Below are positions 15,799-34,226 of a stretch of DNA of 64,000 nucleotides, piece by piece (the stretch's first letter is position 1; each line of letters begins with the position of its first letter). Source of the DNA: Candidatus Methanophagaceae archaeon. GTDB taxonomy: Archaea; Halobacteriota; Syntropharchaeia; Alkanophagales; Methanospirareceae. Under the pieces are notes generated by a model, which saw only the letters and a list, made by a program, of their open reading frames with translations, was not told the origin of the DNA and searched no databases. The translations under genes and the position numbers were made by a program. The DNA is taken from positions 3,981-67,980 of the forward strand of contig PQXC01000006.1 in the NCBI GenBank assembly GCA_003194435.1, in the 5' to 3' direction.

Positions 15799-15807
15799 AA
15801 TCAGATT

Positions 15808-17795: not shown

Positions 17796-17905
17796 TAGCC
17801 AGCGACTCATCAGAATTAAAGGCTAAAAGGGATAAAGAGGATGAAAAGAGAGCAATAGCATTTCACTTAACGTTCCCGTGCCAGCATAAAAGAAGTTTTT
17901 GCAAA

Positions 17906-17979: not shown

Positions 17980-18053
17980 TACCTCTACTACTCTTATTTT
18001 TTATAATAAAATAAAAATCTTCTGTATTGTATATTGTATTGTATCATTCAAAT

Positions 18054-18542: not shown

Positions 18543-18728
18543 CGCTATCTGTTCACGTGTTCAATGAATATATGAAAGATAGACCCATGCTATATATAAA
18601 GGATATGGTAGAAGGGGTGGGGTGACCATACATTTCCACTGGAGTGAATGTGAGAATAGGTGAAGAGACGGAAAAAATATTTACATTGATAAAAGGAAAA
18701 AATCATAGGAGAAGCGGAGGACTGAGAA

Positions 18729-19931
18729 TTGGCACAGAATAAGGATTATTACGAGATCCTGGGTGTTGATAGAGGAGCATCAGAAGAGGAGATAAAACGC
18801 GCTTATCGCAGATTGGCGAAGAAATATCATCCTGACCTGAATAAGGATAATCCGAAAGAGGCGGAAGAGAAGTTTAAGGAGATCTCTGAGGCTTATGAGG
18901 TCCTGTCAGACCCTCAGAAGCGGGCAAATTATGACAGATTTGGGCATGCCGGCGTTGACTTTGGTCCCGGTGGATTCGATTGGTCGAAGTTCACAAGGTT
19001 CAGTGATATAGAGGATATATTCAGGGATATATTCGGCACTGACTTTGGCTTTGGAGGCGCGGGTAGAGGGGGGACCAGTAGCATATTTGAGGACCTCTTT
19101 GGTGCCGGTAGACACCGGGGTGCTGAGTACCAGTACCCGGAGAGGGGCAGGGATATCAGGTATGACATGGAGATAGAGTTAGAGGATGCAGCGAGGGGTA
19201 TAGAGAAGGAGATAGAGGTGAGCAAAGAAGAGACCTGTCCGGATTGTAAGGGCACCGGAGCGTCAAGTGGTGGCTTACAGACCTGCCCTGCATGCGGTGG
19301 AACGGGGCAGATAAAGCGGGTCCAGAGGCAGGGTTTTGCTCAGTTCGTCTCCATTACCACCTGTCCGCGATGTGGGGGCAGGGGTAAAGTGATAGAAAAG
19401 CCTTGCAATACCTGCGGTGGAAGTGGTAAAATAACCGTGAACAAGCGTTTATCAGTGCGAATACCGCCTGGAGTGGATACCGGTAGTAGATTACGGATAC
19501 CGGGAGAGGGAGAGGCGGGTGAAAGAGGCGGTCCGCCTGGTGATTTATACATAGTGATACATATAAGAGAGCATGAAATCTTCAGGAGGGAAGGGAAAGA
19601 CCTCTATTGTGACGTCCCTGTAAGATTCGCTCAGGCGGCTCTCGGTGATGAAATACGGGTGAAGAACATATATGGTGATGAAGTGAGGTTGAAAATTCCT
19701 CCCGGTACACAATCGGGTACCATCTTCCGATTAAGAAATCAGGGCATGCCGGATTTAAAGGGACATGGACGGGGTAACATGATGGTCAGGGTAAAGGTAG
19801 TAACGCCGAAGAAATTGAGTAAAAGGCAGAAGGAACTGCTAAAGGAGTTTGATAAGGAGGAAGAGAAGCAGAGTAAGAGTAAAAGGGATACTTATTCTGC
19901 TTTCTGGAAGAGAAGAGGAAAGATTAATTAA
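18729..19931 (+). CDS. dnaJ: Chaperone DnaJ (J-domain, G/F-rich, four CxxCxGxG zinc repeats)
   Basis: DYYEILGV...HPD J-domain; [35 protein letters not shown] start with upstream GGAGG. Confidence 0.9.
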
Positions 19932-19990
19932 CTTTATATAGGTGAAAAGAAAGATTAAAGTAGAAATAGAAAAGATGCGAGGGGGAAGTC

Positions 19991-21769
19991 ATGGAAGGAC
20001 TGCTAAGGACACCGATTCTCTCTGTACTGGGACATATAGACCATGGGAAGACCACTTTACTCGATAGTATCAGAGGTACAGCAGTAGCAGCGAAGGAAGC
20101 GGGTGGCGTAACGCAGCATATAGGTGCTACGGAGATACCGATTCGGGTGATAAAGGAGATTTGTGAACCCTTAAAGAGCGATTGGACTGGAATTGAAATT
20201 CCAGGATTATTATTTATTGATACTCCAGGGCATTACGCTTTCGCATCACTGAGGAAGCGGGGAAGCGCTCTGGCAGATGTCGCGGTACTTGTGGTGGATG
20301 TGATGGAGGGTTTTCAACCCCAGACTTACGAATCGTTGAGCATTCTGAGATTATTGAAGACCCCTTTTGTTGTGGCATTGAATAAGATAGATAGAATAAA
20401 GGGCTGGCAGTCATCGAGGAAGCCATTTGTTATAAATTACCGGTCACAACCGGAGTTTGCGAGCAGGGAGCTGAATACAAGGATATACGAGATAGTGGGC
20501 GACTTATATGACAAGGGCTTCTCCGCTGACCGATATGACCGGATCAGTGACTTCTCAAGGACTGTGAGTATCGTGCCGGTGAGTGCGAAGACAGGAGAGG
20601 GGATAGCGGATTTGCTTCTTGTTCTTATAGGTCTGGCGCAGAAGTACTTTGAGAGGAACCTGCGACTGCATCTGGAGGGTCCAGGTGTGGGTACGATACT
20701 GGAGAAGAAGGAGGAGCGAGGGCTTGGAACCACGATTGATGTTATATTGTACGATGGTAAGCTCAGCGTAGGAGACACGATAGTGGTGGGGAGCGTGAAA
20801 GAAGAGCCGATAGTGACGAAGATAAGGGCATTATTGAAGCCGAGAGCACTCCAGGAGATAAGAACGGAGCAGAGATTCAGGCGTGTAAAATCCGTGAGTG
20901 CCGCTGCAGGGGTGAAGATAATGGCGCCGAATATAGAAGATGCGCTCCCTGGCTCTCGTGTTCGTGCTGTCCCCGCTACGGGTAATGTAGACGCAGATAT
21001 AGAGCGTGTAATTAAAGAGATGAAGGATGAGATAGCGGAGATGAAGCTGGACACATCATCCGAGGGGCTGATTATAAAGGCAGACACGATGGGTTCTCTG
21101 GAAGCATTAGCTCTGGAATTGAGAAGCGAGAAGATAGAGCAGATAAAGAAGGCGGAAGTGGGGAATATCTCGAGGCGGGATGTAGTTGATGCCATCATGG
21201 TCAGTGACCGTTATTTGAGAGCTATTCTGGGCTTTAATGTTGATGTTCTACCCGATGCGAGAGAAGTAGCCATGCAAAATGACATCCCTATCTTCGTGAG
21301 CGATGTCATTTACAGGGTGATAGAGGATTATGAGAACTGGGTCAAGGAGGAGAAGGAACGAGAGAGACAGGAGAAGATAGACAGGCTGACAACACCAGCG
21401 AAGATAAAGGTACTACCGGGTTGTGTATTCAGGCAGAGCAAACCTGCTATATTTGGAATTGAAGTATTGTGTGGCAGGATAAAGACTGGTGTGGAATTAA
21501 TAAAGTCAGATGGCACAAATATCGGCAGTATAAATGAGATACAGAACAGAGGAGAGAGCATAGCCACGGCAGATGAAGGCATGCAGGTGGCTATCTCAAT
21601 GAAGAAGCCCATCTTCGGACGGCATATAAAAGAGAATGATATCTTATATGTAGATGTGGATGTAGGCGTAGCGGAAGGAGCTGAGAAGGAGCTGAGAGGT
21701 TTACTCTCACCGTGTGAGGAGGAGTTACTGAGGGAAGTGTATGAAATAAAATTGAGGAGGCGAAGATGA
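19991..21769 (+). CDS. infB: Translation initiation factor aIF5B (IF2 homologue)
   Basis: GTPase G1 VLGHIDHGKTTLLD; G3 DTPGH; G4 NKID. 592 aa with C-terminal beta-barrel domains. Confidence 0.9.
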   Translation: MEGLLRTPILSVLGHIDHGKTTLLDSIRGTAVAAKEAGGVTQHIGATEIPIRVIKEICEPLKSDWTGIEIPGLLFIDTPGHYAFASLRKRGSALADVAVLVVDVMEGFQPQTYESLSILRLLKTPFVVALNKIDRIKGWQSSRKPFVINYRSQPEFASRELNTRIYEIVGDLYDKGFSADRYDRISDFSRTVSIVPVSAKTGEGIADLLLVLIGLAQKYFERNLRLHLEGPGVGTILEKKEERGLGTTIDVILYDGKLSVGDTIVVGSVKEEPIVTKIRALLKPRALQEIRTEQRFRRVKSVSAAAGVKIMAPNIEDALPGSRVRAVPATGNVDADIERVIKEMKDEIAEMKLDTSSEGLIIKADTMGSLEALALELRSEKIEQIKKAEVGNISRRDVVDAIMVSDRYLRAILGFNVDVLPDAREVAMQNDIPIFVSDVIYRVIEDYENWVKEEKERERQEKIDRLTTPAKIKVLPGCVFRQSKPAIFGIEVLCGRIKTGVELIKSDGTNIGSINEIQNRGESIATADEGMQVAISMKKPIFGRHIKENDILYVDVDVGVAEGAEKELRGLLSPCEEELLREVYEIKLRRRR

Positions 21770-21770
21770 G

Positions 21771-22166
21771 ATGCAGGTCGTGATTAGTGATCCAAAGACG
21801 GGTAAGGCATACAAGCTGGAAGGTAAGGATACGGAAGTGAGTGCCTTATTCGTGGGTAAGCGGATAGGGGATTTAGTGGATGGAGACATTCTGGGGCTAA
21901 GTGGCTATATGCTGGAAGTAAGGGGTGGCTCAGACCGTGATGGAGTGCCAATGCGGGCTGATGTACCAGGGGCAGGGAGGAGGAGAATCCTGATCGCTTC
22001 ACCGCCCGGTTACAGACCCCGGGAAAAGGGCAAGAGGAGGAGGAAGTATGTCCGTGGTAATGAAATTTCAACTGATATATCGCAGATAAACGTGAAGATA
22101 AGAATGTATGGTCACCAGCCGATAGAGAAGATATTTGGTGAGGTGAAAGAGGGAGGGGAGGCGTAG
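21771..22166 (+). CDS. rps6e: 30S ribosomal protein S6e
   Basis: MQVVISDPKTGKAYKLE...GKRIGDLVDG...RRRKYVRGNEIS, S6e family. Starts 2 nt after the infB stop. Confidence 0.85.
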   Translation: MQVVISDPKTGKAYKLEGKDTEVSALFVGKRIGDLVDGDILGLSGYMLEVRGGSDRDGVPMRADVPGAGRRRILIASPPGYRPREKGKRRRKYVRGNEISTDISQINVKIRMYGHQPIEKIFGEVKEGGEA

Positions 22167-22218
22167 GCGTGGTTGAGTTCTTTGTTCCCTGTTCCTTGAT
22201 TGAGAGCATGTTAATGTT

Positions 22219-22515
22219 ATGCGAAGAGCAACCTCTTTTCATCCAAATGCATATTTGAAACACAGGAGGAATGTCGTGAGTGGCTTAAAGGCGAGGACAA
22301 AGATAATCAAGATGATGGAGAATGTGGATACGGAAACGGGAGCTGGAAAGGAAACGACGGCAAGGATGATATCGCAGTTCCTTAGCTTGAGTTATCGGGC
22401 ATCTTTACACCATTTACACCTGCTGGAGGAGGAGAAGATAGTGAAACGAAGCGGTAAGAGACCCTATAAGTGGGCATTGACCGGTAAAGGGCAAAAGGGC
22501 GTCGTCGAAGAATGA
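22219..22515 (+). CDS. Small winged-helix protein (probable start at the internal MMENV)
   Basis: ARMISQFLSLSYRASLHHLHLLEEEKIVKRSGKRPYKWALTGKG resembles a wHTH. Start uncertain. Confidence 0.35.
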   Translation: MRRATSFHPNAYLKHRRNVVSGLKARTKIIKMMENVDTETGAGKETTARMISQFLSLSYRASLHHLHLLEEEKIVKRSGKRPYKWALTGKGQKGVVEE

Positions 22516-22525
22516 TGAATGATGA

Positions 22526-23629
22526 ATGATGAATGAAGAATTGCTCATGATTCCAGGACCGGTGCCGGTACTACCTCGCATTCGTAATGCGATGTCAAAG
22601 CCGATGATATACCACCGGGGAGAGGAATTCAGGGCGATGTATGAGGAGATAGTAGCAACGCTGAAGTGGATATTTCAGACGAGGAACGACCTCTTCGTGC
22701 TCTCAGGCTCAGGCACATGTGCAATGGAAGCGGCGATAGGCAACCTCGTTCGTAAGGATACCCCGGTGGTGAGCATAGCCAATGGCAAATTTGGCGAGCG
22801 GTTAGTTGAGATAGGAAACAGGTATAGCGATAATGTCACCCCGGTTAACTTCGAATGGGGCAGTCCAATCGAACTGGAGGAAGTGAAGGCGGCTATGGAG
22901 GAGAAGCATCCTCAGGTTGTTACAATGGTGCATAACGAGACATCAACAGGTATACTCAATCCAGCAGAGGCTATTGCAAGACTCACACGTAAGTACAATG
23001 CACTGTTCGTGCTGGATTGCATCACCTCAATTGGGGGCTACGAAGTGCCGGTAGACGATTGGGGGGTGGACATTGCCATTGTCGGCTCACAGAAATGCCT
23101 CGGTGCACCACCCGGGCTGTCGGCAATCTCGGTAAGTGAGCGTGCATGGAAGATGATGCTGGGTGATAATGATAATAGTGAGAGTAGGGAGAGACCATAT
23201 TATATGGACCTCATCGCTTACAGAGATAGTTTTGAGAAGGGACAAACACCCTATACACCTGCTTTACCTCTGTTCTTTGCATTGCGAGAGGCACTGGAGG
23301 TGATAAAGGAGGAAGGGATGGCAAAGCGAGTAGAACGTCACAGGCGACTCGCAGATACTCTCCGCTCTGCTGTCACAAATCTGGGATTGAGTTTATTTCC
23401 GAGACTGAACGATGTGAGTGCATACTCCAACACGGTGACCGCAATAAAGGTACCTGAGTGGCTCGATGATGCGCACTTGAGGGGTGGTATGCGAGAGAGG
23501 GGGGTGATGGTCGCAGGTGGTCAGGGTAAGCTGAAGGGCAAGATATTTCGGATAGCCACAATGGGGAATATAACAGAGGGTGAAGTCTCGAGAACCATAC
23601 AGGCACTGGAAAGTGCACTCAGGGGGTGA
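22526..23629 (+). CDS. PLP-dependent aminotransferase class V (serine-pyruvate/alanine-glyoxylate/phosphoserine aminotransferase family)
   Basis: 367 aa; [12 protein letters not shown]...; PLP-lysine region [11 protein letters not shown]. Confidence 0.8.
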
Positions 23630-24099
23630 AGGAGAGAGGAATGAAGAAGGAGTTGAAGGTAGTTCCTATAAAAAATGGCACCGTTATTGACCACATCTCT
23701 GCCGGTCAGGCACTGAATGTGCTTCACATATTGGGTATCAATGGTAAGACTGATGCGGTTGTGAGTGTGGTGATGAACGTACGGAGTGGAAAGATGGGGA
23801 GGAAGGATATAGTGAAGGTAGAGGACAGGGAACTAAAGCCGGAGGAGGTGGATAAAATCGCTTTGATTGCGCCAAATGCCACTATAAATATAATACGCGA
23901 CTCGGAAGTGATAGAGAAGCATAAGGTATATTTACCTGAGTTTATAGAGGGTATAATAAGATGTTCGAATCCCAATTGCATATCTAATGCGGAGCGTGAG
24001 CCGGTTGTACCGAGATTTGTGACTTTAAGCACGAATCCTCCGAGGTTCCGGTGTTTCTACTGTGAGCGGATAATGGAGGATGTATCAGGGTATATATAG
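23626..24099 (+). CDS. pyrI: Aspartate carbamoyltransferase regulatory subunit
   Basis: [16 protein letters not shown]-domain and C-terminal Zn domain CSNPNCIS...FRCFYCE. No pyrB adjacent. Confidence 0.85.
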
Positions 24100-24117
24100 T
24101 ATATAAAAGAGGATATA

Positions 24118-24687
24118 ATGAGTAGGAATGCGCGAGTGAAGCGGGAGACGAAGGAGACGAGTGTGGAGGTGGAACTTGAACTTGATGGTAACGGTGCCAC
24201 CAGGATAGACACCGGAATTAAATTCTTTGACCATATCCTCACTGCTTTCGCCACTCACGGGTTCTTTGACCTCGTTGTGGATGCGGAAGGTGACCTGAGC
24301 CATCATATCATTGAGGACACTGCTATCACGCTCGGTAAAGCGTTCAAAGATGCAATTGCAGCCGATAGGACGAAGACCGTGCGGTATGGTCTCGCTGCGG
24401 TGCCCATGGATGAATCCATTGCGAGATGTGCAGTAGATATAGGCAGTATAGGTGGAGAGGGTAGAAGTTATACGGTCCTGGAACTGGGCTTGGCAAGGGA
24501 GCGGGTTGAGGACGTCAGCACCGAGGACATACCCCATTTCCTAAATTCTTTCGCATCTCATGCAAATCTCACACTCCACATATATGCACGGGGCGGTAAC
24601 GAGCACCACAAGATAGAAGCGATATTTAAGGCGCTTGGAATTGCACTGGATAAGGCAACGAGGGTAGAAGAGAGGAGGGTAAAGTAA
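24118..24687 (+). CDS. hisB: Imidazoleglycerol-phosphate dehydratase
   Basis: RETKETSVEVELELDG, FFDHILTAFATHG, HHIIED motifs. Confidence 0.9.
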   Translation: MSRNARVKRETKETSVEVELELDGNGATRIDTGIKFFDHILTAFATHGFFDLVVDAEGDLSHHIIEDTAITLGKAFKDAIAADRTKTVRYGLAAVPMDESIARCAVDIGSIGGEGRSYTVLELGLARERVEDVSTEDIPHFLNSFASHANLTLHIYARGGNEHHKIEAIFKALGIALDKATRVEERRVK

Positions 24688-24769
24688 TACAGTAACGCGA
24701 ACACGTATACTATACCCATTTCTTGAATAAAACCAATTTACGGGGTAGTAAACATAGAGCTCAAGGGGC

Positions 24770-24839
24770 GATCCGCTAATCTTGATGACCCAAACCCTTA
24801 CGGGCTTCGCATACCCGCAAAGCGTTATACGCCATGCCT
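24770..24839 (-). repeat. Diverged, inverted copy (D) of the structured repeat family; core gcgttatacgccatgcct at 24822-24839
   Basis: Reverse complement reads ttaggcatggcgtataacgctttgcgggtatgcgaagcccgtaaggg. Shares the 16-18-bp core with 7199-7214, 5360-5375 and 25473-25488. Confidence 0.5.
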
Positions 24840-24848
24840 AAGAGGTAG

Positions 24849-25278
24849 ATGAAGATGAGAAGAAAGATAAGAGTATACTTGGTCACTTCGGTAATTTCAG
24901 CGCTATTTGATGAAAGGAATCCAGAGAGGAAATCACTCACAGAAGCTTTTTTCGCGGAAATAGATAATTTTGAGACTTTCATCCCGCACTCCCGACATGG
25001 AACTCCAAAGCAAATTGAAGGATGCAGTATCGCGATTTTCAGTGCTCTCTTTAACCGATGACGTTGAATGGGTAGCGCGCGAGTATATCCCAGTTCCAGA
25101 GAGTTACTCTGAGGATGCCTACCATATTGCCATCGCTGTTATAAACGAGGTAGACTATCTTTTGAGTTGGAACTTCAAGCACATAGTGAGGAGGAAAACG
25201 AGAGACATAGTGAGGATGGTAAATACTTTAAATAACCTGAGACAAATAGAAATTATGGCACCTGCAGAATTGCTATAG
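24849..25278 (+). pseudogene. PIN-domain (VapC-like) toxin gene split by a +1 frameshift; first catalytic Asp replaced (RVYLVTSVISAL)
   Basis: ORF 24849..25061 carries the N-terminal PIN strand (vyLDTsvi-like). ORF 24970..25278 in the +1 frame carries the C-terminal PIN half (DAYHIAIAVINEVDYLLSWNFKHI). Confidence 0.55.
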
Positions 25279-25287
25279 GAGGCAGAT

Positions 25288-25614
25288 ATGAGCAAGATTA
25301 AGGAAGAAGATATTGAGAACATAAGAAAAGCCATAGAAAAGGAGTTTCCAGAAGACCCTGCTTTACAACAGGTTCACATCGCGAGGAAAATCATTGCTAA
25401 AGAAGCGCAACTTGAAGGATTAAGTTTCTTTGAATACGTCAAATTGTTGGGGAAGCGAGTAGTTAACAATGAAGGCACGGCGTATAACAGAGCGTATCTG
25501 GCTTCGGTTATAGCCTTCGCCAAAATTCCCACGCGGGGAACTTCAGATACGCTCGGAACGTTATCTGCAATTGCTTGGCTTATAGTGAGGTGTGAAAATG
25601 GGACGTCTTATTAA
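25288..25614 (+). CDS. Hypothetical protein (108-aa ORF whose C-terminal 45 codons run through structured repeat A)
   Basis: ORF only. The 3' third is encoded by the repeat, so the native stop is probably lost. Confidence 0.3.
   Translation: MSKIKEEDIENIRKAIEKEFPEDPALQQVHIARKIIAKEAQLEGLSFFEYVKLLGKRVVNNEGTAYNRAYLASVIAFAKIPTRGTSDTLGTLSAIAWLIVRCENGTSY
25473..25565 (+). repeat. Structured repeat A (reference copy): AGGCACGGCGTATAAC-aga-GCGTATCTG-[two hairpins]-CAGATACGC-tcggaac-GTTATC
   Basis: Seen directly. 9-11-bp perfect inverted repeat, internal GGCTTCGG...AGCC and TTCCCacgcGGGGAA hairpins, ATAAC/GTTAT outer inverted boxes. Confidence 0.6.
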
Positions 25615-26950
25615 AATACACGATATAGACGAGTTTTCAGAAGTCAAAACTATCCCAGATGCAACTATAAATAACGAAATACTGACTAACATCAGAAATT
25701 TAGATGAAAAAAAGGAACTGGAGCGTTTTCTTCGAGAAATTTTATATGATCCAAATGAAACTCCTCATGGTCCTACGGAAATAGCAGATATATTGACAAA
25801 TGTACATGTTAGAGGAGATAAGCGATTAACTGCTTTTGTTTTGAAAGGAAAAAGCTTCCAAAGAGTTTCAAGTAGACATGTAACTCATCAATTCGCTAAA
25901 CTCCGGCAAATCTCAGAACTCGGTTTGATGGTTTTTGGAGCAGTCGGGAATATCCAAGATGATGCTCAGAGAGATTTTGTGCAAATAGCTATTGATGCAG
26001 GATGTGACTATCTTATCATGGATGCTCAGGACTTGGCACGCTTGTTTATTGCCTATGAAAAAATCTGTCCAAAAGATGGGACACCTTATGATGATACAGG
26101 CACATGTAAAAAAGGGCATGTGCGAGATAAGGGTTTGCCTTTAGAAATGGAAGTAAGAGAAAAAATACGATACACCATTGTAAATCAAAAAGACGTAAGC
26201 CACGCTGGAGCCAAACGTTACTCTGCTACTATTCTTTTAGACAGGCATTATCCTAAGGATGTAATTAGAACAATTATTCAAGAAGCAACAGAGAAGCTGA
26301 AATATAGCAGTTATTACCGTAGTGAACGACTGAAAGCACGCTGGGGGAAAAATCCTGCTCATGTAGTGTGGCTATTCATAGCTTATGACTTAGAGGATAT
26401 TCAAAATGCAAATTGGGTCTGTCGTACTTGTTGGATAGATCCATCGTTAACAAAAGATATGCGTCCTGTTGATTTAAATGGTAATGAAAAACTCGGAGAT
26501 ATAGAAATCCTTTGGAACGATGACTATAAACCATATAAGAACTTCTTTGAAACTTTCTCTGGCACGAAGGAGGAATTTTTGGGAGCCATTCAGCCCATAT
26601 TGAATGAAATGATAGAGTTTGCTAAACGAGCAATTGAGTATTTTGAAGAATACCGCCGAGGGAACATTCCTGAAGAGGAGTTGATCTTGAGGATGCAAAA
26701 GATGGAACCAAGGGTCACGGAATTTTACTTGCAATCAGGAAATATCCCTATGCCTCCCGAAGACTGTAAGGACTATGACCAAGCTTGCCAGAATATTTTT
26801 GCTACTATCCACGATATGTTTCTCTATTTTTCTAAAAGAGGGTTAGAAACATGGCCTAAACGAAATAGAGATTGGTTAATGCAGGACACTATAAAGCGAT
26901 TTTATAATGATATGAATAGGATTAGATTTGAAGAGACTAAGATACATTGA
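25592..26950 (+). CDS. Hypothetical 452-aa protein, island cargo (possible nuclease-like N-domain)
   Basis: Long intact ORF with no recognisable motif beyond a possible alpha/beta N-domain. Bounded by repeat A upstream and half-repeat C starting at its stop codon. Confidence 0.55.
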   Translation: MKMGRLIKIHDIDEFSEVKTIPDATINNEILTNIRNLDEKKELERFLREILYDPNETPHGPTEIADILTNVHVRGDKRLTAFVLKGKSFQRVSSRHVTHQFAKLRQISELGLMVFGAVGNIQDDAQRDFVQIAIDAGCDYLIMDAQDLARLFIAYEKICPKDGTPYDDTGTCKKGHVRDKGLPLEMEVREKIRYTIVNQKDVSHAGAKRYSATILLDRHYPKDVIRTIIQEATEKLKYSSYYRSERLKARWGKNPAHVVWLFIAYDLEDIQNANWVCRTCWIDPSLTKDMRPVDLNGNEKLGDIEILWNDDYKPYKNFFETFSGTKEEFLGAIQPILNEMIEFAKRAIEYFEEYRRGNIPEEELILRMQKMEPRVTEFYLQSGNIPMPPEDCKDYDQACQNIFATIHDMFLYFSKRGLETWPKRNRDWLMQDTIKRFYNDMNRIRFEETKIH

Positions 26951-26951
26951 T

Positions 26952-26976
26952 ACTTCAGATACGCTCGAAACGCTAA
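26952..26976 (+). repeat. Half copy (right arm, cttcagatacgctcgaaacg) of the structured repeat family
   Basis: Matches the right arm of repeat A in the same orientation. Begins immediately after the TGA of the 452-aa gene. Confidence 0.5.
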
Positions 26977-26977
26977 G

Positions 26978-27739
26978 TGGCAAAAAGAGTTTACAAGAGG
27001 GTTACAGGAGCTCCTAAAATCCTATGTAGATAGGGAAGCGACAAAAAATTATCAAAGGATTATCCCAGATACTGGAAAATTTTATGGAGTTCCACTTCCT
27101 GTTTTGAGAATAATATCTGCCGAAATAGGAAAGTTTATCCAGAAAGAACCAACAAAAGCTACGACATTGTTAGAAACTATCTGGGATGAAGGTTCCTTTG
27201 AATCAAGACAGATAGCAGGGAAATGCTTAGAGAAGTTTGGTCCAAAGAATCCAAAAATTTGTTTAGATTTTGTCTCTTCAGTATTACCTGATCTTGATAA
27301 TTGGGCTGTTTGTGATAATCTTGCCATGTGTGGAGTAGAACCAATAGTTTATTCCAATCCGGAACTCGTTTTACCTCTCTCTGAAAGATGGATTAAGAGC
27401 GAGAACAAATGGATCAGGCGGTTTGGAGTGGTAAGTTTACGAGGATACAAGAGAATCCAAATAACAGATAAAGCTTTCGAGATTCTTGATCTGGTCATGG
27501 AAGACAAAGACAAAGATATAAAAAAGGCGGTATCGTGGGTTTTGAGAGAAATAACAAAGAAGAATCCAGATGGGGTGGCAGAGTTTTTAACACGATGGGC
27601 AGAGGCAAAGCCAGATAAGAATGCGAGATGGATCATAAAGGATGGGATGAAAAAGCTGCCAAAAGAAATGCAGACTGAAATCTTAACTTGGGGTGCACCC
27701 CTAAAAGTAGACAGTAAGTTAAGAAATAAGAAAAAATGA
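26978..27739 (+). pseudogene. AlkD-like DNA alkylation repair (HEAT-repeat DNA glycosylase) gene, start codon lost at 5' end and 3' end reading into the IS3 inverted repeat
   Basis: Open frame from 26951 with no ATG/GTG until TTG 27104, yet the upstream codons encode the conserved AlkD N-terminal region (LQELLKSYVDREATKNYQRIIPDTGKFYGVPLPVLRIISAEIGK). Same frame as the 452-aa ORF, separated by one TGA. The last 17 codons (WGAPLKVDSKLRNKKK) are IS terminal-repeat sequence. Confidence 0.55.
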
Positions 27740-28071
27740 AAAAGGGGTGCAAGATGAAAAGAAGGAGGCAATATACACGGGATTTCAAAATTGGTGTAAT
27801 TAGAGAGGTCGAGAGTGGAAAAACGCTTGCCCAGGTGTCACGTGAGAACGAGATACATCCATCTCTCGTGGTGAAATGGAAGAAGGAATACTTTAGGGAC
27901 CCGGAAAATGCCTTTCGTGGCAACGGGAAGGCATATAAAGAGCAAGCAAGGATGGCAGAGCTTGAAAGGCTGGTTGGGCAGTTATACGCAGAAAACGAGT
28001 TTTTAAAAAAAGCATTGACCAGATTGGAAGTCAAAATCAAGGAAGAGGAGGTAAAAGAAGCACGGGGGTGA
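27736..28071 (+). CDS. IS3-family transposase OrfA (HTH)
   Basis: RRQYTRDFKIGVIREVESGKTLAQVSRENEIHPSLVVKWKKEY, leucine-zipper-like C-terminus. Confidence 0.85.
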   Translation: MKKGCKMKRRRQYTRDFKIGVIREVESGKTLAQVSRENEIHPSLVVKWKKEYFRDPENAFRGNGKAYKEQARMAELERLVGQLYAENEFLKKALTRLEVKIKEEEVKEARG

Positions 28072-29003
28072 AATACATGCTCATAAAAGAGAGTCTCGAA
28101 TCTGGAAGCCAAATATCAGTAAATCGAGCCACGCAATTATTGGGCGTAAGCAGATGCGGGTTCTATAAGTGGCTCGGGCAATCGAAGACCGGACAGGTGA
28201 ACGCCATACCGGACATGGACGTTAGAAACGAAATACAGAAGATCGCCGTGGAGTTCCCCGCATACGGATACAGACGGATAACCGCCGAACTCCGGAATCG
28301 TGGTTATTCGGTGAACCATAAACGTGTACTCAGGCTCATGAGAGAAGACAATCTCCTTTGCGTTCGTAAGGATTTTAAGCCAAAAACCACCGATTCCAGG
28401 CACGATCTCAGGGTCTATCCCAATCTTGTGAAGGGGTTGAAGATAACCCGATTGAATCAGGTATGGGCTTCCGATATCACTTATATCCGTCTATCGGGCG
28501 AATTCGTCTACCTGGCGGTAATCCTGGACCTCTTCAGCAGGAAATGCATCGGATGGAATCTGGATAGAAGCCTTCACACAGAACTGGCGTTAAAAGCTCT
28601 GGCTATGGCAATAGAAACACGCTGGAATGAGAACCTGCGGGGACTGATTCACCACTCAGATCAGGGAGTTCAATATGCCTCGGAAGAATATATCGGATGT
28701 CTCAAAGCGCATGGAATCCTGATCAGCATGTCAGCGCGTGGCAACCCCTACGATAATGCATTCGTAGAGAGCTTCATCCGGACATTGAAGTATGAAGAGG
28801 TCTATCTCAATGAATATGAGACCTTCTCCGACGCCTTAGATAATATCGCTCATTTCATAGAGGACGTATACAACAAAAAGAGGCTGCATTCTGCCATAGG
28901 GTACCGCTCTCCCATAGACTTCGAGAAGGAAATGGAGATGGAGATGGAGATGGAAATGGAAAAGGGGGTGAAAGCATCGAAAGTTTTAAATACTGTTTCT
29001 TAA
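28068..29003 (+). CDS. IS3-family transposase OrfB (rve integrase core, DDE)
   Basis: WASDITYIR...HHSDQGVQYAS...NAFVESF (D, D, E triad region). In the -1 frame relative to orfA. Confidence 0.85.
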   Translation: MKYMLIKESLESGSQISVNRATQLLGVSRCGFYKWLGQSKTGQVNAIPDMDVRNEIQKIAVEFPAYGYRRITAELRNRGYSVNHKRVLRLMREDNLLCVRKDFKPKTTDSRHDLRVYPNLVKGLKITRLNQVWASDITYIRLSGEFVYLAVILDLFSRKCIGWNLDRSLHTELALKALAMAIETRWNENLRGLIHHSDQGVQYASEEYIGCLKAHGILISMSARGNPYDNAFVESFIRTLKYEEVYLNEYETFSDALDNIAHFIEDVYNKKRLHSAIGYRSPIDFEKEMEMEMEMEMEKGVKASKVLNTVS

Positions 29004-29052
29004 CTAGTTGTATACTAACAGGGGTGCACCCCAACTCTTTTAGATTGAGAAT

Positions 29053-30183
29053 ATGACAAAATTCATCGAAATCGAAGCGAAGAGTATTTTACAGAAGTAT
29101 AAGTTTAGAGATGATTGGTTCTGGAATCGTTACGGGGTTAACCCTTATCGTGGCTGCCAGTTCGCATGCAACTATTGCGATGCGATAACAGAGAAATATC
29201 TTGTGCATGAATCCTACAAGGATTTCTCAAGGATAATTTATGTAAAGAAGAACGCTCCCGAAATCTTAGGAAAAGAGGTTAAAAAGTTGAAGCCAGATGT
29301 TGTTGCTATGTCCGGCGTTACTGACCCCTATCAGCCCGCTGAGAAGAAATATGAGTTAACAAGGAAAATGTTAGAGATTTTAGCAGAGCATAGGTTTCCG
29401 GTTCATATTATCACGAAGAGCGATTTGGTCTTAAGAGACGTTGATTTACTGCGAGAGATAGCAAAACAGACCTGGTGTACGGTTTCCTTAACAATTATAA
29501 CCTTCAATAAGGAGTTGTTGCCCTACCTGGAACCGTTTGCACCTTCGCCGGAAAGGAGGTTAGATGCAGTTGATAAGTTAAATAAGGAAGGAATACCGGC
29601 AGGTGTTGACTTTACACCCATTGTACCATATCTTTTGGATGGTCCAGAAAATATTGAAGAAGTGATCAAAAGGGCATCTGAATGTGCACAATATATTCTA
29701 ATCGGTGCAGCAATGACTCTGAGAAGTAATCAACGCATAAGATTCTTTGAATTATTAAAAACAAATTTTCCTGAACTCGTGGAAAAATATAAGAATTTAT
29801 ATGGAGAGAAAGAGAATCCTCCACAAGATTATATTGTGAGGCTAAATGGTCTTGCATTTGAGTTTTGCAAGGAATACGGGATAAAGAATTATATTGAGCC
29901 GCCGAGCTTTGAAAGACCTCTCAAAGAGAATTTTGATGTGGCAAATCATTTATTGTTGATAGCGTTTTTCAAAGAATTCAAATCAGCAAATCCTTATTCC
30001 GCGTGGGCTTATCATAGGGCATCTCAAAATATAGAAAACTTAGATGAGAGCATAAAGGAGATTTATAAAAAAGGAGAATTAAAAAAGATTCAAGGTGTAG
30101 GGAAGAGTATCGTTAAGATTATTGAAGATTATTTAACAAATGGGAGCAGTGAAAGATTGGATAAGGAGATTAAGACATGGTAA
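29053..30183 (+). CDS. Radical SAM DNA-repair photolyase family protein (spore-photoproduct-lyase-like, COG1533) with C-terminal helix-hairpin-helix
   Basis: CQFACNYC (CxxxCxxC); overall SplB-like length; C-terminal KIQGVGKSIVKIIEDY HhH motif. Confidence 0.7.
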   Translation: MTKFIEIEAKSILQKYKFRDDWFWNRYGVNPYRGCQFACNYCDAITEKYLVHESYKDFSRIIYVKKNAPEILGKEVKKLKPDVVAMSGVTDPYQPAEKKYELTRKMLEILAEHRFPVHIITKSDLVLRDVDLLREIAKQTWCTVSLTIITFNKELLPYLEPFAPSPERRLDAVDKLNKEGIPAGVDFTPIVPYLLDGPENIEEVIKRASECAQYILIGAAMTLRSNQRIRFFELLKTNFPELVEKYKNLYGEKENPPQDYIVRLNGLAFEFCKEYGIKNYIEPPSFERPLKENFDVANHLLLIAFFKEFKSANPYSAWAYHRASQNIENLDESIKEIYKKGELKKIQGVGKSIVKIIEDYLTNGSSERLDKEIKTW

Positions 30184-30268
30184 ATATAAATAAAAATCAA
30201 CTCACTACGAAAGAGAAAAACAGGAATAAATTTGCTTATTTCTGGATAAGTTTTTATATCTCGCAATA

Positions 30269-30792
30269 GTGATAGTCTCGGCCATTTGGACATGGCGGCA
30301 GCCTTTTCAAGATAATATACTATATCCACATCTGCACGATGTATCAAATATGCTTGGTGGAATTTTATTAGGAATATTGGCTGCTTATTGGCTTTCAAGC
30401 CAGGAGAAGTTAATAAGTTTTCTGATACCAATCGCTATAATAGATTTCATCAGTTTTACACGGTTTGGAAGGTGGACTCCTAATCGGAAATTGATTGAGA
30501 ATAAAACATTTGCAAAAAGCTATCGGTTTGCATGCCCATTCCAGGTTTCTCAGGATTCTATCAAATAACTGGCATTGGAGATATGTTTGTTTTTGCCCTT
30601 ATTGAGGGGGCCACTCTAAAAATTTGGGGAATACATGCTATTTGGATGGCTATCAGTGCTATCATTGTTGGGCAGATTCCGAACGTTATTGGTATGCTAT
30701 CTTTTAAGAACAAGCCGTGGTACCGTGGAATTCCAGCAACTTCGTTCCCTGTTTTGATTTTTGTTACAATCGTTTTAGGGTATAGCTTATGA
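30269..30792 (+). pseudogene. Membrane protein gene split by a frameshift (ORFs 30269..30568 and 30532..30792)
   Basis: Two overlapping hydrophobic ORFs in different frames. Confidence 0.35.
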
Positions 30793-30817
30793 GATTAACA
30801 AGAGAGGGGTAAAAAGC

Positions 30818-31177
30818 ATGGATAAAATAATGAGCACAGGAAACTCAAAAGCTGCAAATCCATGGCGGTTTTTTGCCCTTGCTCCTGGCATTTCGTGTTT
30901 TTTTCTGGATGTGGGTTGTATTGTTGGCGTTCTTGCAGGCTCACCGTGGCCAGAGTTTGAAACAGCCAGAAATCTGCTGTCTGAACCCTGGAGAATTCTT
31001 CCTTTTGCCGTTTTTATCCTGCTCTATGGTCCATTACCGGAAGAGCTGGGCTGGCGCGGTTATGCTCTGGATGGGCTGCAGGTGAGATATAATGCACTAT
31101 TCTCAAGTCTGATACTGGGCGTGGTAAAATGCTTGAAAAAGCACATTGGAAGCCCAGATACGAGAAAGAAGGCATAG
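30818..31177 (+). pseudogene. Truncated CPBP-family (CAAX/Abi) intramembrane metalloprotease
   Basis: Motif 1 EELGWRGY (EExxxR) present, but the ORF stops at 119 aa before the FxxxH / HxxxN motifs. Confidence 0.5.
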
Positions 31178-31490
31178 AGGTCTTCGTAAGCCGAGGAACC
31201 ATGCTGCGCATAATCCTCACACCATTGACCCTGAGATAGTGAAACAACACCTTCCTGGCTCTACCCTCTTTCGGATAGCCCGCTAACATGTTTAAAGAGG
31301 CGATGTGCGCTCGGAACTCCATAGTTCCGGAACTACTGGATAAAAATAAAGAAACCTCCATGACCCCCAAGGGGGACACCCATGAACATGAAAATAAGAA
31401 AGTATTTTCATACCAAATAATAAGTTATAAATCAGGATGTGTATAGGTAAAGTAGGTTGAGGTGTTTTTTTCAGAGATGATAGAGGATAG

Positions 31491-32720
31491 ATGATAGAGG
31501 ATAGCAGACTGTATGGGCATCGTATGTCCGAATGGCAGCAGGTGCGGCAATTAGCGCAGTTCCACGTCTATCTCGATCCAGAGACGGGGATGGCTTATAC
31601 ACATCCTGAGTTCCTGCCACCGATCATTCGAAACAGGCTATTACCAAAGCTCGGGTTTGAATCACATAGCCAGAGAGCGTTCTTCATCATCACAGATAGC
31701 CACCAGCTTGTGGAGTACAAGGGGCTTGTCTATCCCTATTCCAATGACAATGATATAGAGATAGTGCCGGCAAGTGGACAGCCCTGGGGCATGCTCTTGA
31801 AGGAGCATGGTGAACGTGAAGCAATGGCATTGAATGCAATTGCAAGGCGAATCGGTGGTGTCTATGGTGAGTATCACGATGCGGGAGTGGCAATACAGAA
31901 CCGAGAAAGAGAAGGTGGTGAGATAATACATTACGGCGTTCTCAGGCGCTGGAGTGATGATTACGATTATGCTTATGCTTACATACCTTTTATTAGGCTT
32001 GACCTCTTTGATGCTGTGAGGCGACTTGCCACGCTGGAGGGCACGTCACATATCGAACTGCTGAAGAGTGCAATGGCGCGATTGGGCTTGATATTGAGGA
32101 CTGCACATGAAATTGGGATTTATCACTGCTTCACGCATCCGGGTAATATAGATGCACATGGCAACCTTGTGGATTTCGAGCATGCAATCTGCAGTGCAGA
32201 GATTCCGGTGCTGAAAAGACTATGCCTGAATGGAAGTGAGTTACTGGATGATGCACATCTGCGATATCGAGACATTGACCTCTTCTTTGCTGGCGCTCGT
32301 GAGATTCTGCACAGATGTCAGACATGCTTTAAACTCTCTCGTGATGAGTTAATGAAGAAGATAAGGTTTCTGCGTGAGAATATATCCATCACAGTGGGTA
32401 TACCTGTTTTTGAGGTTCTTGCACATCTGAATATCGGGTTTTACGAGGATACACTGAAGAGACTCCCGTTCTGCTACCAAGAAGACGTAATAGGAGCGTT
32501 TGTTGATAGCTATTGTGAATCTGGGTCAGGGTCGGAAGTGAAGCGTGGTATCTTCTCAGAACTGCTCAGACATGGCAAATGGACACCGAAGGCGAGTGGA
32601 TACATCATCAATGCCGGGAATCCACTACCAATGCAGCAGATACCAAATGAGCTCATATTAAAGCTCTGGAATATGGCGCCACTCAAGAAGAAAGAGAAAG
32701 TGTTCAGCCCCCTCCACTAA
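31491..32720 (+). CDS. Protein-kinase-like fold protein (APH/RIO-like), possibly a pseudokinase
   Basis: IYHCFTHPGNIDAHGNLVDFEHA resembles the catalytic-loop/DFG region hGDlHpgNi...iDFg, but with Phe in place of the catalytic Asp. 409 aa, otherwise no recognisable motifs. Confidence 0.45.
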   Translation: MIEDSRLYGHRMSEWQQVRQLAQFHVYLDPETGMAYTHPEFLPPIIRNRLLPKLGFESHSQRAFFIITDSHQLVEYKGLVYPYSNDNDIEIVPASGQPWGMLLKEHGEREAMALNAIARRIGGVYGEYHDAGVAIQNREREGGEIIHYGVLRRWSDDYDYAYAYIPFIRLDLFDAVRRLATLEGTSHIELLKSAMARLGLILRTAHEIGIYHCFTHPGNIDAHGNLVDFEHAICSAEIPVLKRLCLNGSELLDDAHLRYRDIDLFFAGAREILHRCQTCFKLSRDELMKKIRFLRENISITVGIPVFEVLAHLNIGFYEDTLKRLPFCYQEDVIGAFVDSYCESGSGSEVKRGIFSELLRHGKWTPKASGYIINAGNPLPMQQIPNELILKLWNMAPLKKKEKVFSPLH

Positions 32721-32952
32721 CTACCATTCGGCAATCTATGAGTAGAAATAACACCTATAACAGCACTGAAAAGAAGGTCCAAAAATTCTTCTTTTAAGAT
32801 ATTTTTGGTGTATCCATGGAATCTGAATTCTATAAGGTAATGTGGCATTTTTATCTGTTGTAGGTCTTTACTTAAACTGGAATACAAATAGTCAATTATA
32901 GAATACAAATCACCTAAATTGTTTGGATTTACAGGAGGAAGTGAATGACTTG

Positions 32953-33010
32953 CGAAATGGCGTATAACAGCGGATAAAAGGCTTCGATGCTTCACACCTT
33001 CGCCCAAGTG
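32953..33010 (+). repeat. Copy E of the structured repeat family (ggcgtataacagcgg...ggcttcgatgcttcacaccttcgcc), right half diverged
   Basis: Shares the GGCGTATAACAG core and the ggcttcg..ccttcgcc central part with repeats A and B. Lies at the boundary between the accessory island and cofH. Confidence 0.45.
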
Positions 33011-33164
33011 GTGTTCAAATATCGTCTTCTATATTTTTGCTGTGTATCTGTAACGACTCTTTCATAATGATATTTTTACAAGGAGGGTATGTAAAGGCTA
33101 ATGTTTTGGTAGACAGTTGTTCGAAGATTTTTGTGAGGGAATGTTAATAAAATAATCCTAAATC

Positions 33165-34226
33165 CTATATCAGTTTATACAGTGTGTTCCTCCTCCTTGG
33201 TGTCCTACCCGCATCCTTTATCAGCCGTTCAAACTCCTCCGGGCTCAGGTATTCTCCAGCTGAAGAGCCCGATAGCCGTGATATATTCTCTTCCATCAAT
33301 GTGCCTCCAAGGTCATTCACACCGAAATATAGCATCCTCTGTGCATACCCTACCCCGAGCTTCACCCACGACGCCTGTATATTCACACAATATGGATGAA
33401 GAATGACCCTTGCGAGTGCGTGTACTATTGCATTCTCCTCAAAGCTGACATCGCGCTTCACCAGCTTTCCCAATTCATTATTCTTATGCATGAACTTCAG
33501 GAGCACGAACTCGGTAAACCCTCCTGTCTCTTTCTGCAGCTCTCTTATCCTGAAAATGTGGTTTATCCTCTCCTTCCACGTCTCTATGTGTCCATACATG
33601 ATAGTGGCAGTGGATGGAATCCCCATGCGATGTGCACTCCTTATTATACTCTCCCATTTAGCTGTATTTAGCTTCCGGGGGCATATTATCGCTCTTATAG
33701 AATCATCCAGTATCTCTGCTGCCGTGCCAGGAATAGAGCCCAAACCTGCGCTCTTCAGCTCCTTCAATACCTCTTCCACTTCCAACCCCGTATTCCTTGC
33801 TACATGATATATCTCCATAGGTGAGAAAGCATGGATATGCACATCAAACTGCGATTTTATAGTCTCAACGAGTCTGCAATAGTCGTCCAACCGCAGGTCA
33901 GGATGCAATCCACCCTGAATGCATATCTCGGTCGCCTCATTTTTCACCGCCTCTTCCACCTTCTCCAGAACCTCATCCATAGTCAGCATATAGCCCCGCT
34001 TCTTATCCTCCCTGAATGCACAGAACTTGCAATTCCCGATGCAAACATTCGTGAAATTTATGTTCCTGTTCACCACGTAGGTGACAATATCACCCTTCGT
34101 ATCCTTCCGCAGCTCATCCGCGAAGCGAAATAAAAGAGGGGGGTGATTCACAAGAAAGAAGGCATCTGCACGCTCTATCCCTCCCCTCCTTATTCGCTCA
34201 TATAACTCATCGAAATCGTCTTTCAT
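33165..34226 (-). CDS. cofH: Radical SAM enzyme of the CofH/MqnC/MqnE family, most likely F420 (FO) synthase subunit CofH
   Basis: VVNRNINFTNVCIGNCKFCAF is the family signature around the CxxxCxxC motif. 353 aa. F420-utilising host context. Confidence 0.65.
   Translation of the reverse strand: MKDDFDELYERIRRGGIERADAFFLVNHPPLLFRFADELRKDTKGDIVTYVVNRNINFTNVCIGNCKFCAFREDKKRGYMLTMDEVLEKVEEAVKNEATEICIQGGLHPDLRLDDYCRLVETIKSQFDVHIHAFSPMEIYHVARNTGLEVEEVLKELKSAGLGSIPGTAAEILDDSIRAIICPRKLNTAKWESIIRSAHRMGIPSTATIMYGHIETWKERINHIFRIRELQKETGGFTEFVLLKFMHKNNELGKLVKRDVSFEENAIVHALARVILHPYCVNIQASWVKLGVGYAQRMLYFGVNDLGGTLMEENISRLSGSSAGEYLSPEEFERLIKDAGRTPRRRNTLYKLI

Follow-up and report, generated by a model that had tools for sequence, protein, structure and literature searches.

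Integrons and clusters of attC sites lacking integron integrases (CALINs) are arrays of co-oriented, promoter-less cassettes of one or two genes, each ending in an imperfect palindrome (…TAAC / GTTA…) with crossover at G|TT, and most of these arrays are without an intact integrase. Archaeal integrons, mostly integrase-less clusters, were described in 2022 in hosts that include group 1 of the anaerobic methanotrophic archaea (ANME-1) (Ghaly et al., Sci Adv, PMC9668308); attC clusters and one IntI were found in metagenome-assembled genomes (MAGs) of ANME-1, and the bacterial integrase IntI1 recombines diverse archaeal attC sites, one of the active sites having GTATAAC/GTTATAC cores (PMC9668308). 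Here we compare with these systems the region between hisB and cofH in a stretch of 64,000 nucleotides (the window; contig PQXC01000006.1, positions 3,981 to 67,980, assembly GCA_003194435.1) of Candidatus Methanophagaceae archaeon. By exact protein matches, the window belongs to a contig of 88.5 kb whose proteins are recorded as PXF52763-PXF52817; CofH itself had no exact match.

The region between hisB (24118-24687; IGPD, E=3e-48) and cofH (33165-34226, minus strand; Radical_SAM and CofH_C) is probably composite, with a decayed integron-type cassette array on the left (24787-29048) and eroding, species-conserved chromosomal DNA on the right (29053-32720). An initial annotation of the window had read the whole as one decaying accessory island, and its inventory of genes and repeats is borne out by Pfam, NCBIfam and comparison with other strains and with locus L046 (loci used for comparison carry L numbers). 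About five genes of the region are disrupted, those for a PIN toxin, its partner, an AlkD-like glycosylase, a membrane protein and a CPBP protease, in line with the earlier count of at least five; intact genes, besides orfA and orfB of an IS3-family insertion sequence, are those for a 450-aa protein, a radical SAM protein and a 409-aa protein. The G+C content is 0.36-0.40 at 25-27.5 kb and 29-31 kb, compared with 0.47-0.50 in the flanks, which is the compositional difference that the initial annotation had proposed to look for.

With integrons and CALINs the left array shares, besides the features given above, a better-folding bottom strand, cargo rich in toxin-antitoxin, defence and unknown genes, near-identical sites in archaea and bacteria, and the presence of ANME-1 among the hosts. 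It differs in that its site family keeps the site sequence, not just the structure, across phyla; the L stem is perfectly paired, the asymmetry of the site lying in spacers of 1 nt and 5-6 nt; and two hairpins, together with a conserved CGCCCAAAT linker, give the site a branched interior. The recombinase associated with these arrays is without the IntI insertion and has an extra N-terminal domain of ~80 aa; it is located upstream of the cassettes and co-oriented with them, with attI past its stop codon, and in arrays it consists mostly of short stubs. In the reverse-orientation integrons of Spirochaetota (Treponema type), too, the integrase gene is transcribed in the direction of the cassette array, as mentioned in PMC9668308, but the enzymes there are bona fide IntIs that have the additional domain. 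Archaeal XerA and bacterial XerC-XerD are comparable in that full-length relatives of the recombinase score near the XerA cut-off and have XerA as their best structural matches, whereas Xer recombinases act on a single double-stranded dif site in chromosome dimer resolution, with no cassette arrays or hairpin sites, and possess neither the extra N-terminal domain nor the IntI-type …SPLD C-terminal motif. The left array is here called integron-like because its cores, palindromes, crossover point and strand preference are those of integrons and the extrahelical bases and the IntI domain are lacking; it appears to work in the style of an integron and is no more than a candidate member of that class in the strict sense.

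A family of attC-like sites in Archaea and Bacteria

Repeats A, D and E and half repeat C of the region belong to a single family of attC-like sites of ~100 nt, with further copies on the other strand of the window at 5273-5376, ~4327 and ~4062. The initial annotation had taken the repeats for unrelated landmarks; that they are all one family explains how the cargo arrived. Each site has an R'' arm (GCGTATAAC), a 1-nt spacer, an L stem of 11-12 bp, two small inner hairpins joined by CGCCCAAAT, a 5-6-nt spacer and an R' arm (GTTAxxx). The full unit, GGCACGGCGTATAAC-A-GAGCGTATCTGG…(hairpin 1)…CGCCCAAAT…(hairpin 2)…ACTTCAGATACGCTC-GGAAC-GTTATxx, runs in the order inverse core, L'', variable interior, L' and core, and thus has the layout of an integron attC site. 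The cores, GTATAAC on one side and GTTATAC, GTTAGGC or GTTATCT on the other, lie 87 nt apart in sites of ~100 nt, corresponding to the RYYYAAC…GTTRRRY cores and 55-140-nt palindromes of integrons. Strains with an identical HisB have a copy of the site with the same cores and a different yet complementary L box (GGTATGCG/CGCATACC).

A search pattern built from conserved parts of the site, including GTAT/ATAC and two C's, found 47 loci among contigs of one genome per species, where ~7 were expected by a rough estimate, and 46 of the 47 share the consensus also at positions that the pattern left free. The archaeal hosts include ANME-1, Methanosarcinales, Syntrophoarchaeum, Alkanophaga, Methanoperedens, Bathyarchaeota (Bathyarchaeia), Hadarchaeia, Thermoplasmatota and Nitrosotalea; the bacterial hosts include Aminicenantes, Atribacterota, Zixibacteria, Chloroflexota, Cloacimonadota, Desulfobacteraceae and Patescibacteria. 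Copies in the window and in related loci were located with R1, a covariance model of the site. A BLAST search of the site against the PLSDB plasmids gave no match, and no publication describing the site family or the recombinase stubs was found in open-access text. No known RNA family accounts for the repeats, as Rfam (which has no attC family) gave no match to the island even at E<=1.

In an alignment of 51 sequences, 95% of the cells of the L stem are paired, and five of its 12 pairs have compensatory double changes, in 25 cells; this compensatory signal was reached by none of 500 shuffles, and slid controls all collapse. For inner hairpin 2 there are at least 19 distinct stems. In 46 of the 51 copies the bottom strand, as single-stranded DNA, has the higher predicted stability (-18.9 vs -16.5 kcal/mol, p=9e-9), and mismatches in the R arms are mostly C.A on the top strand, which are G.T on the bottom strand. 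The asymmetry of the site resides in the R-L spacers (1 nt vs 5-6 nt).

Several copies of the site (at 24787, 26952, ~4327 and ~4062 in the window and at ~8000 in L002) have each lost their 5' half, and what is left of them is CCCAAA, hairpin 2, L' and R'. Half-sites of this kind would be unable to fold and would lock cassettes in place, and either chance deletion or a by-product of recombination may have produced them.

Cassette arrays and their junctions

Arrays of R1 matches on one strand comprise four copies each in L018 (Bathyarchaeota), L046 (ANME-1) and L050 (Thermoplasmatota) and three in L054 (ANME-1), all of which clearly contain at least two attC sites within 4 kb on the same strand, as a CALIN in the strict sense does. 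The sites are 0.2-2.3 kb apart, mostly 0.5-1.5 kb, and the open reading frames (ORFs) between them, often one or two, are co-oriented and end at the sites. The cargo includes PIN and DUF5615 toxins, a SIR2-TPR protein, an HNH protein and methyltransferases, with ThsB-TIR and NucS-like proteins in other loci.

A circular cassette opened between G and TT carries the bases after the G at its front, and the 3' flank of one site should therefore pair with the 5' arm of the next. Scored over the 11 variable positions outside the conserved xTAAC/GTTAx core in 18 pairs of sites, a 3' flank and the 5' arm of the following site are complementary at 7.2 of 11 positions on average, and at 8 or more in 10 of the 18 pairs; the mean is 4.3 of 11 between a flank and the 5' arm of its own site and likewise 4.3 for unrelated arms, only 3.3% of which attain 8 or more. 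The two testable cassettes of the window, the PIN cassette (its 5' end against the 5' arm of its own attC) and the OLD-like cassette of a sister array, both reach 10/11, a value that rises to 11/11 once G.T pairs on the bottom strand are counted. The PIN cassette is shared with L046, from another ANME-1 species, where the homology starts at GTTATAC behind a different upstream site. On this comparative evidence the sequence after G|TT is evidently part of the cassette that follows, with whose own R'' arm it pairs; the sites, likewise, are evidently structured, and R' is evidently where cassettes are exchanged.

Recombinase remnants and attI-like sites

Searches by tblastn with an IntI1 probe detected C-terminal remnants of tyrosine recombinases, co-oriented with the arrays, in L013, L018, L045 and L054, and co-oriented stubs lie in or beside arrays in L013, L018, L045, L054, L059-L062 and the window. 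A crude scan of the fetched loci for tyrosine recombinase motifs found nothing because only stubs, which tblastn detects, are present. The window has an Xer/IntI-like C-terminal stub with an attI-like site at 5006-5222 on the minus strand (stub 5222-~5145, …KIYTHVSNKDIGEIKSPLDSL; crossover G at 5022), the stub being 56% identical over 32 aa to the full-length relative P0138 (tblastn, E=1.6e-4), and a second, shorter stub with an attI-like copy, recognized by translation, at 4007-3841 on the same strand (stub 4007-3978). A listed ORF of 74 aa (4983-5207) is an artefact that extends over stub and attI. The 59-aa remnant of L013, used as a query, returned 3648 proteins; the 120 best-scoring ones all have lengths of 52-102 aa and identities of 71-95%, in most cases 80% or more, and come from both domains. 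Stubs dominate the best of these 3648 matches, full-length genes appearing only at lower similarity, and are often located within arrays; the succession in L060 is site, stub, ThsB-TIR, site, NucS-like, site.

The full-length relatives are proteins of 350-400 aa with Phage_int_SAM_4 and Phage_integrase domains. They score 203-233 bits with the NCBIfam model of XerA (cut-off 220) and 177-225 bits, in two stretches, with TIGR02249, the integron integrase model (cut-off 265); the TIGR02249 matches seem to skip positions ~185-229, the IntI insertion, a gap that emerges across proteins for each of which one stretch is displayed. Their best matches among solved structures are XerA (4a8e, 5hxy), above IntI4 (2a3v), which matches in two stretches. 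In an alignment with IntI1, ~38 residues are missing, an N-terminal domain of ~80 residues is extra and the …YTHV…SPLD C-terminus is shared. The recombinase thus appears to lack the IntI-specific insertion, and no integrase with this insertion was found in ~60 loci fetched around sites or stubs. The integrase had no tblastn match in ANME-1 loci around cofH, hisB or homologues of the 409-aa protein gene (L001-L010, L072-L154).

A repeat-rich site, ending in GTTAxxxGAAAT, follows the stop codon of the recombinase at a distance of 70-150 nt, and the architecture seen in the window is common to L013, L018, L045, L059, L060, L063 and L065. The flank of its junction and the 5' arm of the attC that comes first downstream are complementary at 15/16 positions in L018 and 14/16 in L065 (computed), and at 19/22 in L060 and ~13/15 in L013 (counted manually), and thus the site behaves as an attI. 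It is adjacent to the integrase gene and has a GTTRRRY insertion point, as in classical integrons, but its position is downstream and co-oriented, unlike theirs. Contigs with a full-length integrase mostly end ~100 nt after the gene and few arrays could be followed; L065 has the complete order of full-length integrase, attI, cassette, long attC and cassette. In Chryseobacterium oryzae, positions 4950-6760 of a plasmid (NZ_CP094530, L155) hold the gene of an integrase (WP_243577774) at 42% identity that shares the N-terminal domain; behind it come an attI-like site, a single gene of the VOC family and an attC-like site, and an IS91 element that has its own recombinase is adjacent.

Proposed mechanism and alternative explanations

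The attC-like site would fold as single-stranded DNA of the bottom strand, and a tyrosine recombinase would cut it between G and TT, excising circular cassettes that could insert at another attC or at attI. The junction expected in a circular cassette is …CGGAACG|TTATACGCC…, and that of the PIN cassette would be …GCTCGGAACG|TTATACGCCATGCC…. The enzyme serving the array is most probably an Xer/IntI-like integrase, which would be co-oriented with the cassettes, followed by an attI-like site and equipped with an extra N-terminal domain. Missing extrahelical bases in the L stem go together with a missing IntI insertion, and the strong sequence conservation of the sites and the extra N-terminal domain suggest that recognition might be by conserved sequence or by the branched hairpin and not by the I2 helix of IntI. 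The cassettes of the PIN-antitoxin pair and of the 450-aa protein gene would have entered at an attC beside hisB by attC x attC recombination; small deletions would then have taken the 5' halves of two sites, fixing the cassettes, and have broken the PIN, partner and AlkD genes, and IS3 would have come recently. With no intact recombinase in the window, and with three of the four sites of the island truncated or degenerate, the left array is a fossil, further damaged by small deletions and by IS3. Since the recombinase survives in the window only as C-terminal stubs, the cassettes of the island are probably immobile unless an integrase acts in trans. It is possible, and proposed here tentatively, that the site family and the Xer/IntI-like recombinase form a distinct, so far undescribed class of integron-like platform common to Archaea and Bacteria, whose int-attI module may itself travel in arrays and usually erode to a C-terminal stub.

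If instead the left array were the remnant of a canonical integron, that is, a CALIN of ordinary attC sites served by a true IntI whose gene lies elsewhere in the genome or community, the Xer-like stubs would be bystanders. The R''-L''…L'-R' layout with G|TT crossover is that of attC, and the attC clusters and the one IntI reported in ANME-1 MAGs, together with the activity of IntI1 on archaeal attC sites (PMC9668308), speak for such an origin; we nevertheless regard it as unlikely, considering that the ~60 fetched loci hold no integrase with the IntI insertion, that all clear remnants are Xer/IntI-like, co-oriented and followed by an attI-like site matching the first cassette, and that the L stem is without the extrahelical bases read by the extra domain of IntI. 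Still less probable is a generic decaying defence or addiction island, in which the repeats would be unrelated landmarks such as miniature inverted-repeat transposable elements (MITEs), palindromes like repetitive extragenic palindromic (REP) elements or leftovers of integration, and the cargo would have come by unspecified horizontal transfer. Low G+C, pseudogenes, an insertion sequence, toxin-antitoxin cargo and strain-variable content including defence-like ATPases would suit such an island, but the repeats are one family across two domains, always located 3' of ORFs and co-oriented with them, in arrays, and the right half of the region is not accessory at the species level. Models of MITE or REP elements do not predict complementarity between a flank and the next arm, and the absence of target-site duplications around the repeats, together with their strict orientation to ORFs and the complementarity of partners, led us to reject a MITE origin. 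No tRNA that could have been a target of integration lies near the island; at gathering thresholds Rfam finds only two tRNAs in the whole window. We consider it very improbable that the repeats are structured RNA elements (3'-UTR stabilisers, terminators or small RNAs) travelling with genes: their position directly 3' of ORFs, their covarying stems and their strong sequence conservation would agree with this, but there is no Rfam match at the permissive threshold given above, the sense strand has mainly C.A mismatches and the antisense (bottom) strand folds better, and neither the match of a flank to the site of the next cassette nor the attI-like sites behind the recombinase gene would be accounted for.

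Several points weigh against an integron-like array. Of the sites in the island, only that at 25472 is intact; those at 24787 and 26952 are 3' half-sites, and that at 32952 (repeat E) is degenerate and 6 kb from the nearest other, so that two attC sites within 4 kb on one strand are present only if half-sites are counted, and an intact recombinase is absent from the 64-kb window. R'' (GTATAAC) deviates from RYYYAAC at one position (position 3), and the L stem is a continuous helix of 11-12 bp without the extrahelical bases of attC. Likeness to attC was judged by layout, folding, crossover and strand; four pairs of the L stem (GTAT/ATAC) and two C's were fixed by the search pattern and are hence uninformative; and the IntI1 sequence used as tblastn probe and in the alignment was entered by hand. 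The association with the recombinase consists of co-occurrence and junction complementarity in a handful of loci, and all the evidence is comparative. With these points taken into account, we read the region as a whole as an integron-like cassette array in decay, with eroding chromosomal DNA joined to it at a rearrangement breakpoint.

Cassettes between hisB and the insertion sequence

The spacer after hisB (24688-24786, plus strand, as are all features of the island given below) is common to nearly all strains, and position 24786 is the left edge of the variable region. Ten contigs encode an identical HisB; in seven of them (L001-L003, L005-L008) an identity of ~99% with the window persists as far as 24766-24787, L004 departs from the window at 24731, and the contigs L009 and L010 end sooner. 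The spacer (in L001, 6835-7080) reads as the C-terminal part of a putative retropepsin-like aspartic protease gene (…LIGQVLLELLDLIVEPKTRKLIPNP…), of which the remnant is truncated at 24786 in the window and extends further in other strains. Repeat D (24787-24824) consists of hairpin 2, L' (CGCATACCCGC) and R' with its G at 24824; L001 and L002 have a full site, and it is the 3' half of this site to which D aligns. The continuation of R', GTTATACGCCATGCC, is the reverse complement of the 5' arm of the family; an inverted repeat, as the initial annotation had it, is rejected, D being a 3' half-site in direct orientation whose R' arm mirrors the family 5' arm.

The PIN toxin-antitoxin cassette (24825-25560) contains a PIN pseudogene (24849-25278), a partner gene (25288-~25470) that has lost its stop codon, and attC (25472-25560); it is 90.3% identical in DNA to an intact Methanophagales cassette in L046, the homology beginning at GTTATACGCC. 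The overlapping ORFs of the pseudogene (24849-25061 and 24970-25278) have no Pfam match themselves, and the intact counterpart in L046 is a 152-aa PIN gene (PF01850, E=3e-8) with a 61-aa partner that matches no family. Compared with L046, the PIN gene has lost 26 nt at 24984, with a frameshift, and 9 nt at 25091; the listed ORF of 108 aa (25288-25614) is the partner gene of ~61 aa, in which two 2-nt deletions have removed the stop codon so that it now reads into the repeat. The toxin gene precedes its partner, and a PIN domain with an adjacent small partner, in the intact homologue of the frameshifted copy, would be consistent with a toxin-antitoxin pair. The attC of this cassette is repeat A, the full site of the island, matched by R1 with 98.9 bits over 25472-25572.

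The next cassette (25561-26972) carries the intact 450-aa protein gene (25598-26950; listed as 452 aa, and 450 aa counted from the ATG at 25598), and its attC is reduced to the 3' end (half repeat C, 26952-26972). The protein has no Pfam domain and 395 homologues of ~451 aa, which are distributed patchily over archaea and bacteria and often encoded on contigs of 1.5-2.5 kb; such very short contigs suggest repeats on both sides of the gene. Its AF2 model has a pLDDT of 86 and weak Foldseek matches to restriction endonucleases and Avs4, the N-terminal domain of the model having a weak likeness to restriction-endonuclease folds. The AlkD-like DNA-glycosylase pseudogene (26973-27688; PF08713, E=9e-39) lacks its start codon and first ~17 codons, judged against a paralogous fragment at 3262-3146, and is split by IS3 five codons ahead of its stop, the last five codons and the stop being found at 29034-29048; in other strains the gene has different internal deletions. 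The earlier description as a defence or addiction island stands in so far as toxin-antitoxin and defence-type cargo is typical of the cassette family; PADLOC had no match for the three island proteins scanned (450 aa, 409 aa and radical SAM), and its defence matches lie in the sister array (OLD/AriA/GajA-like) and in the strain variant L004 (HEC-01A-like).

The insertion sequence and the right part of the region

The intact IS3-family insertion sequence (27689-29033) contains orfA (27736-28071) and orfB (28068-29003), which match HTH_Tnp_1 and rve of Pfam and NF033516 (316 bits). It has 39-nt terminal inverted repeats (27688-27726 and 28996-29034) and a 3-bp target duplication, ACT, at 27686-27688 and 29034-29036, and the overlapping frames, the DDE (rve) domain, the TG…CA ends and the 3-bp duplication are all usual for the IS3 family. 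The element is missing from strains L001 and L072, which join cleanly at 29033; it is a recent, late passenger in the array.

Over 29033-33135, L001 and L072 have an identity of 96-99% with the window, with insertions and deletions (indels), and the right ~3.7 kb, from the radical SAM gene to the 409-aa protein gene, are kept within the species (L001, L072, L125). A search with R1 found no hidden cassette site between AlkD and repeat E, and hence 29053-32720 is eroding chromosomal DNA and does not consist of cassettes. An island in flux, as seen by the initial annotation, is thus an apt description in being accessory, variable and eroding, but it is not one island. The radical SAM protein gene (29053-30183; Rv2578c/PA0069-like, 'DNA photolyase-like'; PF04055 with a C-terminal helix-hairpin-helix, PF14716) is intact in the window and frameshifted in L001 and L072; matches of its product to NCBIfam NF038135 and NF033668 are under their cut-offs. 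It is followed by an eroded membrane-protein gene (30184-30792; overlapping ORFs 30269-30568 and 30532-30792), from which 76 nt of the N-terminal coding sequence present in L001 are deleted at 30259, its split into two frames being found also in L001, and by the remnant of a CPBP/Rce1-like intramembrane protease gene (30818-31177; PF02517, model positions 2-50 of 93 only), around which further indels between strains occur at 30911-31092 and 31354-31419.

The intact gene of the 409-aa protein (31491-32720) is predicted to encode a protein-kinase-like (SelO/YdiU-like) fold, Foldseek matching SelO/YdiU at E~1e-4 and protein kinases next. Its usual HxD catalytic motif is replaced by H-C-F-T-H-P-G-N, for which reason the protein may be a pseudokinase or an AMPylase-like enzyme. 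The source names of its 101 homologues, where they include an organism, all indicate Methanophagales/ANME-1 or a broader label (Halobacteriota, Euryarchaeota, Methanosarcin...), and in other ANME-1 genomes the gene adjoins one for a tRNA-binding-domain protein amid housekeeping genes. Judging from this distribution, it is a gene of the ANME-1 lineage and not cassette cargo. Repeat E (32952-33055), the degenerate attC-like site, is matched by R1 with 33 bits (E~1e-4 to 2e-6); its 5' half is kept and its 3' half decayed, and it occurs also in L001, L072 and L125, next to a breakpoint of synteny.

Strain variation, the sister array and chromosomal rearrangement

Comparison of gene order, which the initial annotation had suggested, revealed the different cargo that it anticipated on the hisB side. 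Most contigs with an identical HisB are ~99% like the window up to 24785/24786, 99 nt after hisB, and then differ: in L001, L003 and L005 a protease-like remnant, a full site, a DUF3795 gene and a deleted AlkD gene follow; in L002 the site is fused to a further-truncated AlkD gene; L004 has, from 24731, a HEC-01A-like ATPase (PADLOC); and L006 and L007 have yet other content.

On the other side, a block of MCM, HAD, marker 2 and cofH is kept down to ~69% CofH identity. In L073, of the same species, and in four 95% relatives (L073-L077 in all) homology ends at the stop codon of cofH, at 33155-33166 of the window; in the two annotated loci, L073 and L076, cofH is followed by a periplasmic binding protein gene and then by GH57 and glycosyltransferase genes in L073 and other ordinary genes in L076. 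Direct adjacency of hisB and cofH, one of the two arrangements that the initial annotation had expected in related genomes, was accordingly rejected as the ancestral state: L073 and the 95% relatives join cofH to different genes, and hisB and cofH were thus not ancestral neighbours. R1 matches in the cofH loci of relatives are confined to the same species, none being found in L073-L077, so that the cofH side is not a conserved insertion hotspot. The right end of the island, at the degenerate site E, is by this comparison a rearrangement breakpoint at the cofH stop codon. In L079-L081 (77-78% relatives) the MCM matches are split by ~1.4 kb, probably an intein, and the MCM gene of the window (36155-38269) is uninterrupted.

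A second, inverted cassette array is located at 2400-7242 on the minus strand. Its first cassette (5273-7214) comprises an R' remnant (7214-7192), an OLD/AriA/GajA-like ATPase-Toprim gene (7188-5377), for which PADLOC reports AriA (5.8e-44), Old (2.7e-34) and GajA, and a full attC (5376-5273; R1 98.4 bits). The array also holds the two units of stub and attI-like site, ORFs of 202 and 176 aa, two 3' remnants of attC and an IS110-family pseudogene. At 3082-3262 on the minus strand, an N-terminal fragment of AlkD (3262-3146) lies beside a 52-nt fragment of the left end of IS3 (3133-3082), both being inverted copies of island sequences. The two arrays (2.4-7.2 kb and 24.8-29 kb) are oriented towards each other, and a housekeeping block of 17.5 kb (7243-24786) lies between them. 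Because of this arrangement, and because L073-L077 join cofH to different genes, a large inversion or translocation is suggested, with breakpoints in the arrays or in the copies of IS3 or AlkD.

The minus strand of 40000-64000 has long repetitive ORFs, probably encoding surface proteins and unrelated to the array, with 273-nt tandem units at 50.9-53.2 kb and 300-nt blocks at 41.0, 42.3 and 55.2 kb.

Implications for ANME-1 archaea

ANME-1 archaea govern much of the methane flux of marine sediments and cannot be grown in pure culture, so that their gene flow has to be read from genomes alone. The hisB-cofH locus represents a concrete route by which ANME-1 take up toxin-antitoxin and defence genes, and the two inverted arrays appear to mark a chromosomal rearrangement. 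If it is true that the recombinase works without the IntI domain on sites without extrahelical bases, it would be a natural second solution to the recombination of single-stranded hairpins, and the same case would put present models of strand and site choice by integrases to a direct test; the plasmid of the cultured Chryseobacterium, with a related integrase, an attI and one cassette, makes the question testable. The near-identical site in archaeal and bacterial phyla makes the family a candidate vehicle for gene exchange between the two domains in anoxic sediments.

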